Assembly: GCF_000027325.1 (NCBI RefSeq)
Contig: NC_000908.2
Location: 548,077-580,076 of the forward strand
Length of the DNA: 32,000 nucleotides
Reading direction: 5' to 3'
From: Mycoplasmoides genitalium G37
GTDB taxonomy: Bacteria > Bacillota_I > Bacilli_A > Mycoplasmatales > Mycoplasmoidaceae
Shown: positions 2,727-32,000 of the stretch, one piece after another
Layout of the letters: every line of letters starts with the position of its first letter
How positions within the stretch are numbered: position 1 is the stretch's first letter
Translations under genes and position numbers: made by a program
Notes under the pieces: generated by a model
Database searches by the model: none
Told to the model about the DNA's origin: nothing
The model's input: the letters and a program-made list of their open reading frames with translations, nothing else

Positions 2727-4370
2727 TTATGAGTACTTTTCAATAAATTTGACCAACTTATTTTGTGGTGGATTAGCGAAATATTTATCCATAAACAGAT
2801 TAGTGTGAATTTGACCAAAAGCAATATTAATTAAACCTGCTAAGGCAGCATTTGCAGTTAACAATCAAATAAAAACTTCAATGTTATTTGTTTGAAGTGT
2901 TATTGCTTGAAAAATAAAAAGTAAAGGAATAAATACAAACAATCCGTGTGTTAAAGAGACAATTCAAGAATAAAGCACTCTGTTAGTATTTTGAAAATAT
3001 TGTTGACTATTAGCGCCTGTGGCTACAAAGAAAACTTGTGCTTGCACTATTAATGAAAAGTAATTTGCTAAATCCAAATTTTGATCTGAAACATCAAAAA
3101 AACTAGATAAGATCTGTTTTCCAAAAGCAACTGCTGTTAACAAATAGATTAAACTACCGAACGATATACAGATAATAACTGTATAAATGTTAATTTTTTT
3201 AATTTCATCATATTTTTTTTGTCCAAACTTATATGATGAAACTGTTCTAACTCCTTGTAATAAACCAAAAATAGCTGCTGAAGCTAAATTACTAATAGCA
3301 ATAGGTCCAGTTAAAAGTGTCAGATAAAAAACATCATTTTTATCAGTAGTTGCTTTTGTCAAATTAACCAAAAAACTCTCATAAAATGTAGTAACAATAG
3401 AAAGTGATCCATTTCTAAAAAAGGATGCCATTCCTATTAATGAAACTACAACTAGTAGATTAAAGTCAATTTTGTTTAATTTAATAGTTTTAAAAGTTAA
3501 ATAAGTAAGATTTCTTTTGTTTAAATAAATTAGATAAATAATATAAGCTAAAAAATTAATTAAGTATCCTAGTATTCCAGCCACAGCTGATCCTATTACT
3601 CCTAAAGAAGAATATCTAACTAATAAAAAAACTATTAATATGTTAATCAAATTAGCAATAGGCGGAACAATTGCAATAAAAAGTTGTCTTCCCTCTGATT
3701 GTGCTAAATAAAAAAACAACCTTGAAAGCATAGGAATGATGTTAAGACCAATCAAAATATAAACATATTCAGATGCTACATCAATAGCCTTTTTGTTAAA
3801 AAACTGTTGGAAGCTATTAGCTTGAAAATTTTGTTCAAAACTTGATTGATCAAGATTATAATGCAACCATTCTTTTGCAAAAGATAAAACCAAAAATTGG
3901 GTAATTAGTCCAAATACAGTTGTTGATATTAATCCGGTATTTCAAGCTTCCTGAATTTTATTTTGATCATTTCTACCAATTGCTTTAGAAAAAATAACTC
4001 CAGTTCCTAGAGGAATAAAAATATTAATGGCGTTTAACAAAACAATCAAAGGTTGACTAATATTTAAAACAGTTTTAATAAATTGTTTAATATTAAGTCC
4101 AGAGCTTAAAAAACTATCACTTTTATAAAAAGCAGAATTTTTAAATTCATCAATTAAACTCTGATCAGTAAAAATAGAATCAGGATTAAGTTCACTTCTA
4201 GGAACAAACTTAATCACCATGATTTGATCTATAAATACATAAGCAGCACTAAAAAGTGCAAAGAAAAAAGTTGGAACAGTAAATCTAAGAATAGTTAGAA
4301 AAAGCTGTTTTGATTCAAAAACATTTTTAATTAGGAGTTGTTTTTCAAAACGATCCCTTTTACTGTTCAC
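2727..4370 (-). CDS. MOP-superfamily (MATE/MurJ-like) polytopic membrane transporter
   Basis: Track pieces 2964..3893 and 3942..4370 share one frame. They join and extend through TGA at 3942, 2964 and 2865 to a real TAA at 2727-2729 (547 aa). There are many hydrophobic helices. The N-terminal region (LTILRFTVPTFFFALFSAAYVFIDQIMV) resembles MATE-type transporters. GTG start 4368-4370 lies directly after the msrB TAA. Confidence 0.7.
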
Positions 4371-29191: not shown

Positions 29192-30505
29192 CTAAATTAC
29201 TAATGATGTAATTACATCCCGTAATGAACTGTCATTTTCAATCATTTTAGCAACTCTTTTAACTGCCATTAATACACTTGAATGACTTCTCTTAAATATT
29301 TTGCCAATTTGTTGAAATTGCATGTTGTACTTTTGACGCAAAAGGTAATTACACACATCACGAACACGGACAAGTTCTGCTTTACGATTTTCTGAAAGTA
29401 CACTGTCCATAGGAACATTAAATCTACGGCAAACGTTCTCTATTAATAAATAAGGATCAAAGCTCTTTTTATGAAACTTCTCAAATTCTTCAAAAAGAAT
29501 TTCTTTTAAATTTTCAGTATTTATTAAATTTTGTTTTGAAGTTTTAGCAAAAAATAATAACTTTGTTGCAATTCCATTTAAAGCACGCACATCGTTACCT
29601 GAAATTTGTGCTGCATCATGTCTTGCCTCATTAGTTATTTGGATGTTAGGATCTTTTTCTTTTAATTTAACAGTAAGTATTTCACAAAGTGAAGACAAAT
29701 TATGCTTTTCTATCTTTAGTAATAATCCTGATTTAAAGCGAGAAATCATTCTTGCATCAATATCAATTAGTTCATCAGGAGCCTTATCAGAAACTAAAAC
29801 AATTTGTTTTTTATTTAGAACTAGGTTATTAAAAATATTGAAAAGAATTTCTAAGGTTTTTTCTTTTCTGCCAAATATTTGAGTGTCATCTATTAAAACT
29901 AAATCTAAATTTTCATAATTTTTTTTTAGTTTTTCTATACCTTTATCCCTTTGATAAAAAGCATCAACAACTTCTTGGGCAAAATCACTTGAAACAACAT
30001 ACTTTACTCTGGCATTTGGAAAATTACGAAATTTTTCATTTCCTATTGCTTGTAGTAGGTGAGTTTTACCAAGACCGGTTTCTCCGTAAATAAAAAGCGG
30101 TGAAAATTCGTTATCTTGAGTTTCAGCTAATCTAACGCCTGCTTCATAAGCTCTTTTATTTCCTTCACTAATTACAAAGTTTTGAAAAGTATAGTTTTTA
30201 CTCAATCCAGAATTTTGATAAAGAGTATCACGACTATTTTCTTCTAATTTTGCTAAGTTAAAAAAGAAATCTTGCTCATTAACAAAATTAACACTTTTAA
30301 TTCCTTCATACAAACTTTCAGCTAAATGAATAATTTCAGAATTATCATTTAAGGAATTACGAGCAAATTCATTTTCTAAAAGAATTAAAAGAACATTATT
30401 TTTAAATACGAAACGATTAATGTCTTTAATGTATTTATCATGAAAACCTATTGTTTTTTCATAATGCTTTTTTAATAGAGATTTAAAGGCATTAAATTGT
30501 TCCAT
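29192..30505 (-). CDS. dnaA: Chromosomal replication initiator protein DnaA
   Basis: Intact 437-aa ORF. The AAA+ Walker A GETGLGKTHL, Walker B LVLIDDTQ and the C-terminal DnaA-box-binding helix-turn-helix region (IGKIFKRSHSSVLMAVKRV) are present. Confidence 0.98.
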   Translation of the reverse strand: MEQFNAFKSLLKKHYEKTIGFHDKYIKDINRFVFKNNVLLILLENEFARNSLNDNSEIIHLAESLYEGIKSVNFVNEQDFFFNLAKLEENSRDTLYQNSGLSKNYTFQNFVISEGNKRAYEAGVRLAETQDNEFSPLFIYGETGLGKTHLLQAIGNEKFRNFPNARVKYVVSSDFAQEVVDAFYQRDKGIEKLKKNYENLDLVLIDDTQIFGRKEKTLEILFNIFNNLVLNKKQIVLVSDKAPDELIDIDARMISRFKSGLLLKIEKHNLSSLCEILTVKLKEKDPNIQITNEARHDAAQISGNDVRALNGIATKLLFFAKTSKQNLINTENLKEILFEEFEKFHKKSFDPYLLIENVCRRFNVPMDSVLSENRKAELVRVRDVCNYLLRQKYNMQFQQIGKIFKRSHSSVLMAVKRVAKMIENDSSLRDVITSLVI

Positions 30506-31158
30506 TATTCTTCTATAACATTGTCAAGAATGATAGTTAAAATTCTCGAAATTGGGATATTAACTGCTTTGGAGTAATTTCTAACTTTTTGTCATACTCT
30601 TTGACTTGTATAGAAGTGTACACCTGTATCTAGTTTTTCTTGGCGTTCAACAGGAACTATTCCTGGTATTTTTGTTTTAGGTTGGGGAGGAATAGGCTGT
30701 GGTTGTGTGAATTGTTGTTGAAAATTTTGATTTTTTTGCTGTAAGAAACCATTATTATGATATTGAAAATTTTGTTCCTCTTGAAAATATCTCTCTTTTT
30801 TTGGTTTTCCAGAAAAATTTGATGAAAAAGATTTTTCTTCATTTCAATTTTCAAGATTATTTTCATTTTGTTGATTTATTTGCTCAGGCTGTTGAAATGA
30901 ATTATTTTTTGATCAAAAAGATTTTGGAAAGGTTTTTTCAAAAGCAGATAAAGGTCCAAAATCAAATGAAGATGAATCTTTGTCAAAAGATGTTTCTTCT
31001 CTTTTTGACAAATTTTGTTTTTGATTAAACTTATTTTTATTTTGGGGTGTTACTTTTTCTTTTATGGAAAACAAATCTTCTTCTAAAAGACTTTGTTCTG
31101 GGTCATCATCTTGTGCTAAATCAAAGAAAAAACGTTTCTTTTTGTTATTAATGGACAT
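30505..31158 (-). CDS. 217-aa code-4 ORF between parA/soj and dnaA: basic N-terminus, Q/N-rich linker, ribbon-helix-helix-like C-terminus (candidate ParA partner)
   Basis: The track shows only an 81-aa piece (30913..31158). The same frame continues through TGA at 30913, 30844 and 30592 to TAA 30505-30507. Hand translation: MSINNKKKRFFFDLAQDDDPEQ...FQQPEQINQQNENNLENWNEEK...QQQFTQPQPIPPQPKTKIPGIVPVERQEKLDTGVHFYTSQRVWQKVRNYSKAVNIPISRILTIILDNVIEE. The ATG overlaps the soj stop by 11 nt, and the stop shares a base with the dnaA ATG. Confidence 0.65.
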
Positions 31159-31957
31159 TGTAATTTGCTAAATTTAGGATTTCTTTTGTTATTTCTAAAT
31201 ACTCATTTAGATATTTTTTACTTGGTGATGATACTAATGATATTGGCAATTTTTCATAACCTACAGCTGCTGATGATTTTGATGTCAGAGAAACAAAATT
31301 TTTAGAAAAAGCTACATTATTTTTTTTAGCTTTTGTTTTAGCTAAATCTATTACTTCATTATGAAGACGAGTACGAACGTTAACTTTTGTAGGAACTAAA
31401 ATAGTTTTAAGATTTGTATTTTTTTCCTTAAATGTATCTATTGTTTCAACTATTCTCATCAAACCTAGCATCGAATATTGATCTGGTTCAAAGGGAATAA
31501 CTATGACATCTGATAAACTCATTGCAGTAGAAACTAAAGTTGCCATATTTGGTGGTGTATCTAATAAAACAAATTCATATCTTTTTGCTAGTTGCTTAAC
31601 TATTTCTGCTATATCTGAGGCCTTATATTTTTTACGTGATATGTCTATATCAGCAAAATTAAGTTCAAAATTACAAGGAAGAATATCAAGTCCCTCATAT
31701 ACAGATAGCAAGCAATCATCTATTTCAATGAAATTATTTGAACCACTGAATTTTGGAACCTTCAACAAAATGTCAATTAACGTGTTATTCAATCTTTCAG
31801 GGTTTTGTCCAAATGATGCAGAAACATTCCCCTGCCCGTCAAGATCAAGAATGACTTTTCGCCTTTCTGGACAAAGTTTAACCAATGATCCTGCAACATT
31901 AGTTGCCATTGTAGTTTTTAATACGCCGCCTTTATTATTTACAAAAGAAATGATCAT
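31148..31957 (-). CDS. soj: ParA/Soj-family partition ATPase
   Basis: Intact 269-aa ORF. The deviant Walker A with signature lysine (NNKGGVLKTT), Walker A' (ILDLDGQGN) and Walker B (VLLDTPP) are present. It has no N-terminal HTH extension, so it is the small ParA type. Confidence 0.93.
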   Translation of the reverse strand: MIISFVNNKGGVLKTTMATNVAGSLVKLCPERRKVILDLDGQGNVSASFGQNPERLNNTLIDILLKVPKFSGSNNFIEIDDCLLSVYEGLDILPCNFELNFADIDISRKKYKASDIAEIVKQLAKRYEFVLLDTPPNMATLVSTAMSLSDVIVIPFEPDQYSMLGLMRIVETIDTFKEKNTNLKTILVPTKVNVRTRLHNEVIDLAKTKAKKNNVAFSKNFVSLTSKSSAAVGYEKLPISLVSSPSKKYLNEYLEITKEILNLANYNVH

Positions 31958-32000
31958 ATATTTAAATGATTATAATATTTCTTTAATACTAAAAAAATAC

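Follow-up and report, generated by a model that had tools for sequence, protein, structure and literature searches.

A conserved gene between soj and dnaA of Mycoplasmoides genitalium encodes a candidate ribbon-helix-helix-type partner of Soj beside a phased hexamer array

Results

A 217-codon gene fills the gap between soj and dnaA

The DNA analysed here, referred to as the window, is a 32-kb stretch (32,000 nucleotides) of the Mycoplasmoides genitalium G37 genome. Its distal end carries soj and dnaA on the reverse strand, together with an intervening gene that we term X (Table 1). Translation with table 4, which reads TGA as tryptophan, produced a single uninterrupted X frame of 217 codons plus TAA. 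Under table 11 the same frame is broken at three TGA codons, leaving an 81-aa ORF; one public assembly carries this miscall. The ATG of X (31158-31156) lies 11 nt inside soj and its TAA shares bases with the dnaA ATG (TAATG).

These results bear out most of what an earlier note, made from the letters of this DNA, had claimed for the gene: one frame filling the soj-dnaA gap, an 81-aa ORF under the standard code, and a product comprising a basic N-terminus (MSINNKKKRFFFDL), a Q/N/F-rich linker and the C-terminal sequence GVHFYTSQRVWQKVRNYSKAVNIPISRILTIILDNVIEE. The note had also described the frame as hidden by its TGA codons, which calls for a correction. Two M. genitalium deposits labelled 'hypothetical protein' (AFQ03309.1 and WP_014894350.1) are 100% identical to the product, and MPN_687 of M. 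pneumoniae is 40% identical. We take the gene to be absent from the older G37 annotation. Since the frame is intact in eight M. genitalium variants and has orthologues in at least ten further species or lineages, X is a real gene, far beyond chance expectation. Of the seven within-species variants, six fall in the linker. The possibility that X is non-coding junk or a pseudogene is ruled out by its conservation and by proteomics.

Table 1 Features of the soj-X-dnaA locus (positions in the window)
Feature	Position	Strand	Basis or remark
soj, ParA-like ATPase, 269 aa, first gene of the operon	31148..31957	-	Pfam CbiA/AAA_31 on identical gene
Gene X, orthologue of M. pneumoniae MPN_687	30505..31158	-	Table 4 translation; deposited identical proteins
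N-terminal motif of X, aa 1-19, MSINNKKKRFFFDLAQDDD	31102..31158	-	All 15 aligned members
Linker of X, aa 20-159, low-complexity, predicted disordered	30682..31101	-	AF2 pLDDT <50 over most
Linker island of X, aa 65-81	30916-30966	-	Shared only with M. pneumoniae
In-frame TGA (Trp) of X, codon 82	30913-30915	-	
In-frame TGA (Trp) of X, codon 105	30844-30846	-	
In-frame TGA (Trp) of X, codon 189	30592-30594	-	
C-terminal domain of X, aa 160-217 plus stop	30505..30681	-	Family conservation, RHH-type matches, AF2
dnaA, 437 aa, third gene of the operon	29192..30505	-	ATG overlaps X stop
Putative -10 box TATAAT of the soj-X-dnaA operon	31969..31974	-	Inferred from sequence
Three promoter-proximal array units	31973..32000	.	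AATATTA 31973-31979; AGTATTA 31984-31990; (A)GTATT 31996-32000, cut by window end

The first gene of the operon is not the plasmid-style ParA of the earlier note, because the closest solved relatives of Soj are chromosomal ParA/Soj proteins (best E 1.7e-20). In all ten species its Walker A motif reads KGGVLKTT, with leucine in place of a glycine of the KGGxGK[ST] consensus; the signature lysine and the P-loop lysine are both present. This unusual P-loop may mean that ATPase activity is altered or lost.

The X family is syntenic, expressed and constrained at both ends

An exhaustive HMMER search recovered at least 15 family members, all from the Mycoplasmoides clade. The family has no Pfam model, and the full protein gave no match to Pfam or NCBIfam at E <= 10. 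A homologous-protein search with the family profile returned no match, while a single M. pirum sequence as query did give matches. Scanning genome contigs with the C-terminal profile identified four loci. An earlier scan of such contigs had picked low-complexity N-terminal patterns and confirmed nothing, and no relatives were found by scanning metagenome contigs.

The gene order dnaN(-), gap, soj, X, dnaA is kept in all 11 loci examined, with soj, X and dnaA overlapping or abutting. These loci include M. pneumoniae, M. amphoriforme, M. testudinis, M. imitans, M. alvi, M. pirum and three uncultured relatives; a homologue was also found in M. gallisepticum, whose locus is outside the 11. As in type Ib partition loci, X directly follows the gene of a Walker-type ParA (11/11 loci), with which it shares an operon.

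Every member shares a three-part build: an N-terminal motif, a variable disordered linker and a C-terminal domain of approximately 45 aa. The N-terminal consensus, [KR]3-x-F-[VIFT]-D-L-[SA]-x-D, is present in all 15 aligned members and is presumably the peptide that contacts Soj. Conversely, the linker ranges from 62 to 187 aa among orthologues, with unrelated compositions. Comparison of M. genitalium with M. pneumoniae, between which synonymous sites are saturated, gave pN values of 0.115 for the N-terminus and 0.169 for the C-terminus versus about 0.48 for the linker.

In M. pneumoniae, 111 mass spectrometry experiments have detected the orthologue MPN687, through 11 unique peptides, and its abundance is about 102 copies per cell. 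In this species soj, X and dnaA are annotated as genes 1-3 of 3 of operon 298. MPN687 is a fitness gene and non-essential, in the same class (F2) as soj, and dnaA is essential. A literature search found MPN687 in the main text of no paper. A syntenic ORF in relatives, strong constraint and proteomic peptides were among the checks that the earlier note had proposed for the gene, and each came out in its favour. X is a genuine, expressed gene under constraint at both termini, and in every locus examined it lies between soj and dnaA.

A possible ribbon-helix-helix fold in the C-terminal domain

The C-terminal domain consists of an extended segment containing an invariant H-F-Y, a first helix (A), an N-I-[KPST]-[IL]-S turn and a second helix (B). 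The serine of the turn, invariant in 15/15 members, aligns with the G-L-S-K-S turn of CopG, a ribbon-helix-helix (RHH) protein. Structure prediction was confined to AF2 of the monomer. For a 60-aa construct AF2 placed helices at residues 29-42 and 46-57 (pLDDT approximately 90) after the extended segment; the latter had a pLDDT of 54-69 and no strand by DSSP.

Matches to RHH-type families were consistent and sub-threshold. DUF6364 of Pfam, whose cut-off is 27.3 bits, matched 12/15 members (best E 2.4e-4) and gave 18.9 bits with the first of them; CopG_antitoxin likewise matched 12/15 (best E 0.007). Further sub-threshold matches were to RHH_3 (0.0045), RHH_5 and Antitox_RHH. No curated RHH family of Pfam was matched at its gathering cut-off, and the Pfam models ParG and Omega_Repress gave no match at all. 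Searching the PDB by sequence, once with the C-terminal 60 aa and once with a 15-sequence profile, revealed no RHH protein, only chance matches at E >=0.49. With Foldseek, at least 24 of the 36 PDB matches were RHH proteins (best E 1.9, rmsd approximately 8 Å), the top matches being CopG (first), Arc, ORF56, ParD, ParG (1p94) and CdbA. In hhalign comparisons, helix A, turn and helix B were in register with CopG (P = 8e-4), and the segment from helix through turn to helix B was in register with ParG (E 0.074, probability 0.8%).

The earlier note had read the C-terminus as RHH-like. The two helices, the Foldseek list and the 12/15 CopG_antitoxin matches speak for that reading, which gained no significant RHH match. 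On this profile and model evidence, we describe the C-terminus as an RHH-like domain, presumed to be dimeric and DNA-binding.

A phased array of palindromic hexamers lies upstream of soj

Upstream of soj, 350 to 400 bp are taken up by an array in which some 30 palindromic hexamers (ARTAYT) follow one another at exactly 11 bp. AATATT (z = 12.7) and AGTATT (z = 10.8) are the most over-represented hexamers in this region, and distances between hexamer pairs peak sharply at 11, 22, 33, 44 and 55 bp. In M. genitalium 31 units lie between positions -373 and -16 relative to the soj ATG; the array runs about 330 bp past the window end, as read from the M. genitalium locus sequence, which has one mismatch to the window in 3 kb. 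M. testudinis possesses 37 units, with 36/36 steps of 11 bp.

Ten species had sequence available upstream of soj, and in all ten the X family and an array of 9-37 units co-occur. Rayleigh power at 11 bp was 4-24 in nine of the ten, above 13 in five, and exceeded all 200 shuffles (maxima 3.6-5.7) in eight of those nine; the M. imitans array merely tied its shuffles. The arrays of M. imitans, M. alvi and M. pneumoniae are weaker or shifted, the M. pneumoniae peak lying at 11.3 bp. Elsewhere in the 32-kb window, no stretch of 400 nt showed the same phasing, and Rfam gave no family for either the M. genitalium or the M. testudinis locus. The array is thus a real and conserved feature, confined within the window to this one site; it has previously gone unremarked. 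It does not consist of DnaA boxes: ARTAYT is unlike TTATCCACA, and true TTTTCCACA/TGTGGAAAA boxes occur separately.

The last unit overlaps the putative soj -10 box, an equivalent of which (RTATTGTTATAATAT) is kept in five other species; a strict two-hexamer scan did not pick up this inferred promoter. The locus thus resembles type Ib systems also in its short iterated sites upstream of parA that overlap the promoter, to which binding of X is putative. The hexamer core is invariant, as are the strand residues H and Y of X. A palindromic core would suit a two-fold symmetric dimer.

Judged from the DNA, the array could be the binding site of X. Its location inside oriC means that it could instead serve DnaA-associated factors, DnaB1, SMC or DNA bending. 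At the furthest remove from our reading, the C-terminus would not bind DNA at all: X would be a co-transcribed disordered scaffold or a membrane- or protein-binding factor, and the array would have nothing to do with X, reflecting for instance curvature at oriC or the site of another protein. That every fold match is sub-threshold, and that the link between protein and array is not direct, is in keeping with this. Against it, four independent weak methods converge on the RHH class, the turn serine and the strand H-F-Y are invariant, and family and array occur together in every species with upstream sequence. We consider this explanation very unlikely.

The position of the array on the -10 box raises a further possibility, namely that X is an RHH autorepressor of soj-X-dnaA which sets DnaA and Soj levels, has no adaptor or segregation role, and uses its N-terminal motif for something else. 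Most RHH proteins are repressors, the top structural and Pfam neighbours of X are CopG, Arc and antitoxins, and X is translationally coupled to dnaA. An autorepressor, however, needs one or a few operators rather than some 30 phased sites over 350-400 bp, and the strictly conserved basic/F-x-D-L peptide on its long tether would be left unexplained. Moreover, repression and centromere binding coexist in ParG and omega, so autorepression forms a subset of the adaptor reading developed below. As a complete account of X we regard it as fairly unlikely.

The array occupies the origin region

The dnaN-soj gap that contains the array is the functional oriC of M. pneumoniae and M. gallisepticum. ChIP signals of SMC-ScpAB, DnaB1 and SsbB have been reported at oriC, their recruiter not being known. 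In M. pneumoniae SMC-ScpAB maps to about nt 1-100, and hence within roughly 200 bp of soj. Yus 2019 examined 128 proteins by ChIP-seq. According to the literature M. pneumoniae possesses no ParB, and reviews describe mycoplasmas as having no par loci or no ParB. Our literature search returned no paper joining RHH, ParA and mycoplasma, a general ParB review excepted.

This setting would also accommodate an origin-organising or replication-initiation accessory, in which X binds the array and the target of its N-terminal peptide is not Soj but DnaA, DnaN, DnaB1 or SMC-ScpAB. In favour are the location of the array in a functional oriC, the ChIP signals there of factors with no known recruiter, and the constant position of X directly upstream of dnaA. 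Yet X is equally always directly downstream of soj, the usual position of a ParA partner; MPN687 is only a fitness gene where dnaA is essential; and the motif is unlike the clamp-binding consensus QL[SD]LF. We judge such a role rather unlikely.

Discussion

A candidate centromere-binding adaptor for Soj

We prefer the reading in which X acts beside oriC as an adaptor for Soj and binds a centromere through an RHH-type domain, a proposal on which we are evenly balanced. The C-terminal ~45 residues of X would dimerise as a ribbon-helix-helix, each dimer reading one palindromic ARTAYT hexamer. With about 30 hexamers one helical turn (11 bp) apart, X could coat one face of the DNA cooperatively, and the coated array upstream of soj would constitute a centromere-like complex beside oriC. 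Since the final array unit overlaps the soj -10 box, the same complex would also auto-repress soj-X-dnaA and thereby influence the supply of DnaA. The long disordered linker may present the N-terminal basic-F-x-D-L-acidic peptide to the Soj-ATP dimer, where it would stimulate the Soj ATPase. We infer an RHH dimer, its binding to the array, a contact with Soj and any part that X plays in segregation, in SMC loading or in controlling DnaA. In favour of the reading, the abundance of MPN687, some 100 copies per cell, matches about 30 dimer sites. Overall, the interpretation offered in the earlier note is partly supported.

A broader proposal, possible but doubtful, is that the Mycoplasmoides clade, to which the minimal-genome models M. 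genitalium and M. pneumoniae belong, has replaced ParB-parS with a chromosomal RHH system in which X coats the lattice, activates Soj by means of its N-terminal peptide, takes over from ParB in recruiting SMC-ScpAB to oriC and couples these functions to dnaA expression. If true, plasmid type Ib or archaeal SegAB logic would be at work on a bacterial chromosome.

The literature leaves open both the role of the conserved Soj and what brings SMC-ScpAB to oriC. X and the 11-bp site lattice at the soj promoter are a concrete candidate for both, and could explain how the minimal bacteria of Mycoplasmoides manage without ParB. The candidate is testable in organisms for which tagged-protein ChIP-seq, transposon mutants and quantitative proteomics exist. 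It would be one of few examples of a plasmid type Ib-style centromere-binding protein at work on a bacterial chromosome, and would also matter for minimal-cell and whole-cell models, which treat gene X as unknown.

Comparison with known partition systems

Like ParB/Spo0J, X is encoded beside soj near oriC, and its basic N-terminal peptide leads into a few hydrophobic residues; the corresponding Spo0J peptide is SGLGRGLEALL in Thermus thermophilus, and we take residues 1-20 of Bacillus subtilis Spo0J to be KGLGKGINALFNQVDLSEE. The presumed roles, Soj activation and possibly SMC recruitment, are also alike. Homology of the two N-terminal peptides was considered and rejected, the resemblance being loose and an analogy only. 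X is mostly disordered, and the Pfam/NCBIfam comparison (E <= 10) revealed no ParB/Srx CTPase domain, HTH or ParBc. The candidate site comprises about 30 hexamers, whereas that of ParB is the 16-bp parS palindrome. X does not belong to the ParB family.

McdB, the partner of the ParA-like McdA, shares with X a largely disordered and compositionally biased sequence with a charged N-terminus. It has no RHH and binds carboxysomes rather than DNA. SegA-SegB of Sulfolobus couples a chromosomal ParA orthologue to a small, lineage-specific RHH protein that binds DNA site-specifically and is not a ParB. This system differs from soj-X in being archaeal, in its binding motif and in having neither an N-terminal K/R-F-x-D-L nor a linkage to dnaA and oriC.

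In delta-omega of pSM19035 and ParA-ParB of pB171 par2, RHH proteins cover numerous short repeats that are contiguous and overlap promoters, and they activate the ParA ATPase through an N-terminal tail. Both systems are plasmid-borne, no sequence similarity to X was found, and their repeats are contiguous heptads or 6-bp units rather than palindromes spaced by 11 bp.

In ParF-ParG-parH, the type Ib system of plasmid TP228, arrays of short repeats upstream of parF serve as centromere and operator. There, as in soj-X, the gene of a small Walker ParA precedes, in one operon, that of a small protein whose N-terminal tail is flexible and whose C-terminus is an RHH (RHH-like in X); the ParG structure 1P94 is in the Foldseek list of X. 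Several features separate the two. Sequence homology to ParG is not detectable (hhalign E 0.074; no Pfam ParG match), and X is 2-3 times longer owing to its disordered linker of 60-190 aa. The array upstream of soj consists of palindromic hexamers spaced by 11 bp, as opposed to the ACTC boxes of TP228. Furthermore, soj-X lies on the chromosome beside oriC, fused to dnaA, instead of on a plasmid, and its ATPase has a nearer relative in chromosomal Soj than in ParF. In our preferred reading X, as the DNA-binding partner of Soj, would be more like the plasmid type Ib partners ParG and omega than like canonical ParB.

A constrained and expressed protein is encoded between soj and dnaA

The window has a G+C content of 30% and TGA is read through, indicating that it uses the Mycoplasma genetic code. 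Within it X, the ORF between soj and dnaA, forms one 217-codon frame ending in TAA, in which codons 82, 105 and 189 are TGA. As the earlier note had proposed, reading TGA as Trp leaves this frame uninterrupted, while only the first 81 codons remain under the standard code; this 81-aa truncated call is present as such in one public assembly. The frame fills the soj-dnaA gap, overlapping soj at its start and the dnaA ATG at its stop (TAATG), and no convincing promoter or terminator was found between the three genes. Over 3 kb, the window and a public M. genitalium contig (L010) are identical but for one base.

The gene is not truly hidden, as the earlier note had described it: X had already been deposited as a 'hypothetical protein' of 217 aa, identical or near-identical, from several M. 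genitalium strains (AFQ03309.1, WP_014894350.1). Its M. pneumoniae orthologue, MPN_687 (MPN687; 250 aa), aligns over the full length with 40% identity. Given these deposits the reading frame is already known.

Constraint and detectable peptides, on which the proposal had been made to depend, are both evident. Between M. genitalium and M. pneumoniae, synonymous sites of X are saturated (pS 0.7-1.0), and non-synonymous divergence is 0.115 for residues 1 to 20 and 0.169 for residues 159 to 217, compared with about 0.48-0.49 in the linker. Among eight M. genitalium variants the frame is never broken, and six of the seven variable positions lie in the linker. MPN687 has been observed by MS in 111 experiments (11 unique peptides), at about 102 copies per cell and with a half-life of 7.4 h, and is the second of three genes in operon 298, soj-MPN687-dnaA (Dataset EV2, PMC12494982). 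Both MPN687 and soj belong to fitness class F2, and dnaA is essential (essentiality table, PMC12494982). A literature search found no mention of MPN687 in the main text of any paper retrieved.

Coordinates of features in the window and in the loci compared (L010, M. genitalium contig; other loci, related species or lineages)
Feature	Sequence	Position	Strand	Remark
X	window	31158-30505	-	
soj	window	31957-31148	-	last 11 nt overlap start of X
Linker island of X (aa 65-81)	window	30916-30966	-	
TATAAT	window	31969-31974		
Array unit AATATTA	window	31973-31979		
Array unit AGTATTA	window	31984-31990		
Array unit (A)GTATT	window	31996-32000		cut by window end
Four strict AATATTA/TAATATT heptads	window	4020-4095		within coding region
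Palindromes	L010	2600-2627 and 2687-2713		outside window, about 490-600 nt upstream of soj ATG
Hexapeptide-repeat transferase gene	L003	1607-2146		
Hexapeptide-repeat transferase gene	L006	1733-2275		
Hexapeptide-repeat transferase gene	L008	1903-2445		
Hexapeptide-repeat transferase gene	L009	1933-2475		

X defines a syntenic family with conserved termini

A word-indexed search with X retrieved two species only. Exhaustive HMMER searching with its C-terminal 58 residues revealed 13 further small proteins (127-216 aa), all matching at the extreme C-terminus. The named members derive from M. pirum, M. amphoriforme, M. testudinis, M. alvi, M. gallisepticum and M. imitans (the last from DNA), and the remainder from uncultured relatives; no relatives were found in the JGI metagenomes searched. 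Proteins with 'HFYT' repeats, whose match was confined to the strand region, were discarded as unrelated.

Three parts are common to all members: an N-terminal motif, [KR]3-x-F-[VIFT]-D-L-[SA]-x-D; a low-complexity linker of 62 to 187 residues, unrelated in composition between members; and a C-terminal block with the consensus EExLxKGFHFYSNDRVMNKVKKxAKEKNIKLSKLITMILDKxIKEE, with invariant L, H, F, Y, R, K, S, T, I, D and I. One linker island, FDFGPLxxFxxxFxKSF, is conserved in M. genitalium and M. pneumoniae only, forms weak helical turns in AF2 models and possibly represents a short linear motif specific to this lineage.

The anticipated synteny was found in M. pneumoniae and other relatives: in 11 of 11 loci examined, dnaN (on the opposite strand) is followed by a gap of 0.7-2.2 kb and then by soj, X and dnaA. 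A gene for a 180-aa hexapeptide-repeat transferase is inserted between dnaN and the palindrome and array region (see below) in M. testudinis, M. pirum and two uncultured lineages, and is absent from M. genitalium, M. amphoriforme and M. imitans.

The X C-terminus resembles ribbon-helix-helix proteins, and Soj resembles chromosomal ParA

The earlier note had likened the X C-terminus to ribbon-helix-helix (RHH) centromere binders. Every method that we applied points to this fold, although each match falls below significance. Pfam searches with 15 C-terminal domains gave sub-threshold matches to DUF6364 (12/15, best E 2.4e-4) and CopG_antitoxin (12/15, best E 0.007), together with RHH_3 (0.0045), RHH_5 and Antitox_RHH. 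AF2 predicted full-length X to be disordered apart from two C-terminal helices and, when supplied with the 15-sequence alignment, modeled the C-terminus as an extended segment followed by helices at 29 to 42 and 46 to 57 (pLDDT about 90). Foldseek matches in the PDB had E values of 1.9 or worse and comprised CopG (seven chains), ORF56, Arc, ParD, Rv0298, YiiF, CdbA, ParG (1p94), MazE-mt9, TacA, MatP and NikA, with RHH proteins accounting for at least 24 of 36. Alignment of the family profile by hhalign placed helix A, the turn and helix B in register with CopG (P = 8e-4) and, weakly, with ParG (E 0.074; sequence checked against 1P94). PDB sequence searches with the C-terminus returned no RHH protein. 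Taken together, we consider an RHH fold likely. Under a gapless alignment to CopG, the H and Y that are invariant in the strand would face DNA, and the two F would form the core.

The ATPase had been described as a 'plasmid-style ParA'. This is unsupported, as M. genitalium Soj has its closest solved relatives among chromosomal ParA/Soj proteins (8ray, E 1.7e-20, followed by Soj of H. pylori and T. thermophilus), and neither ParF nor delta was detected at E < 1e-5. It is the partner, X, rather than Soj, that looks plasmid-like. The Walker A motif of Soj reads KGGVLKTT instead of KGGVGKTT (M. genitalium residues 9 to 16), a Gly-to-Leu change immediately before the catalytic Lys. As all ten species examined share it, the change is, judging from sequence, a lineage feature and not decay.

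A phased hexamer array lies upstream of soj

The window includes just 43 nt of sequence ahead of the soj ATG. Upstream of soj, nine related loci and L010 are crowded with A-R-T-A-Y-T hexamers: AATATT occurs 132 times versus 47.6 expected from dinucleotide shuffles (z = 12.7), and AGTATT/AATACT 64 times versus 18.7 (z = 10.8). Immediately upstream of soj, strict heptads reach 7 to 11 per 250 nt, compared with 0 to 1 elsewhere. Site-to-site distances peak sharply at 11, 22, 33, 44 and 55 bp, and TRF independently called 11.7 copies of an 11-bp repeat.

Rayleigh power at period 11, computed over the 400 nt preceding soj, was 4-24 in nine of ten species (best period 10.9-11.1), whereas 200 shuffles per species gave a mean of about 1 and maxima of 3.6-5.7. 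Power exceeded every shuffle in eight species, M. imitans achieving only a tie (4.2 versus 4.1). M. pneumoniae was at shuffle level at exactly 11 bp (0.2), with a peak of 11.9 at 11.3 bp. In the rest of the 32-kb window, taken in 400-nt stretches, power at period 11 never exceeded 4.1. Chaining yielded 37 units in M. testudinis (36/36 steps exactly 11 bp), 31 in M. genitalium (-373 to -16 of the soj ATG) and 23 to 35 in other species, with shorter or shifted arrays in M. pneumoniae (only 335 nt available), M. imitans and M. alvi. The array terminates on a conserved element, RTATT(G)TTATAAT, which is probably a -10 box. Its final three units (AATATTA, AGTATTA and the cut (A)GTATT) fall inside the window. 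A cluster of four strict heptads elsewhere in the window lacks 11-bp phasing and is probably due to chance.

The array repeats a two-fold symmetric 6-bp core at every helical turn and overlaps the promoter of the operon, as would be expected of a site to which symmetric RHH dimers bind cooperatively; from this we infer its link to X. That X is a non-DNA-binding protein and the array unrelated to it seems very improbable. That X is purely an autorepressor we consider unlikely.

The array adjoins the replication origin

Functional oriC is the soj-dnaN gap in M. pneumoniae (PMC12494982); the M. gallisepticum oriC also occupies this gap, where 'short repeats' have been drawn without interpretation. 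SMC-ScpAB is located at the M. pneumoniae oriC and, because this species lacks ParB/Spo0J, 'other components could recruit' it (Yus et al. 2019). Its ChIP-seq signal at genome nt 1-100 (PMC12494982) lies about 95-195 nt ahead of the soj ATG, close to or between phased hexamer arrays. An origin or replication accessory role for X, recruiting something other than Soj, is a further reading that we rate as distinctly unlikely.

The oriC gap also contains a pair of perfect palindromes, spaced by about 86 bp, adjoining DnaA-box-like TTTTCCACA/TGTGGAAAA, with equivalents in seven other loci (L002, L003, L004, L006, L007, L008 and L009). In most species these read AAGAATTAAATAT-AA-ATATTTAATTCTT and TAACTATATTAC-TAY-GTAATATAGTTA, and in M. 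genitalium TATAATTAAGCAT-AA-ATGCTTAATTATA and TTACATATGTAC-TAT-GTACATATGTAA. Rfam gave no match to them. Although the arms vary by species, their complementarity stays perfect, suggesting selection for a hairpin, a cruciform or a dimer site.

A model for X and its relation to known partition systems

The best-supported model, to which we give an even chance of being correct, casts X as Soj's RHH-type centromere-binding and adaptor protein. C-terminal dimers would coat the ARTAYT lattice beside oriC and repress the soj-X-dnaA promoter, and the disordered linker would tether the basic/F-x-D-L N-terminal peptide, allowing it to engage Soj-ATP. With about 30 dimer sites to fill, about 100 copies per cell would be a reasonable stoichiometry. 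The existence of the ORF is not new, having already been annotated. What appears to be new is the definition of a family that no Pfam model covers, its conserved N-terminal motif and RHH-like assignment, the soj-X-dnaA gene order universal to the Mycoplasmoides clade, and a conserved hexamer lattice with 11-bp spacing.

If true, the model would place a ParA-RHH module, type-Ib or SegAB-like, on a bacterial chromosome, fused to dnaA, and would touch directly on an open question of minimal-genome biology. T. thermophilus Spo0J carries the sequence SGLGRGLEALL; its likeness to the X peptide is loose and does not amount to evidence of homology. The array upstream of soj has parallels in the type-Ib plasmid arrays parH, the omega heptads and parC, and the N-terminal peptide of X has analogues in the basic tails at the N-termini of ParG and ParB.
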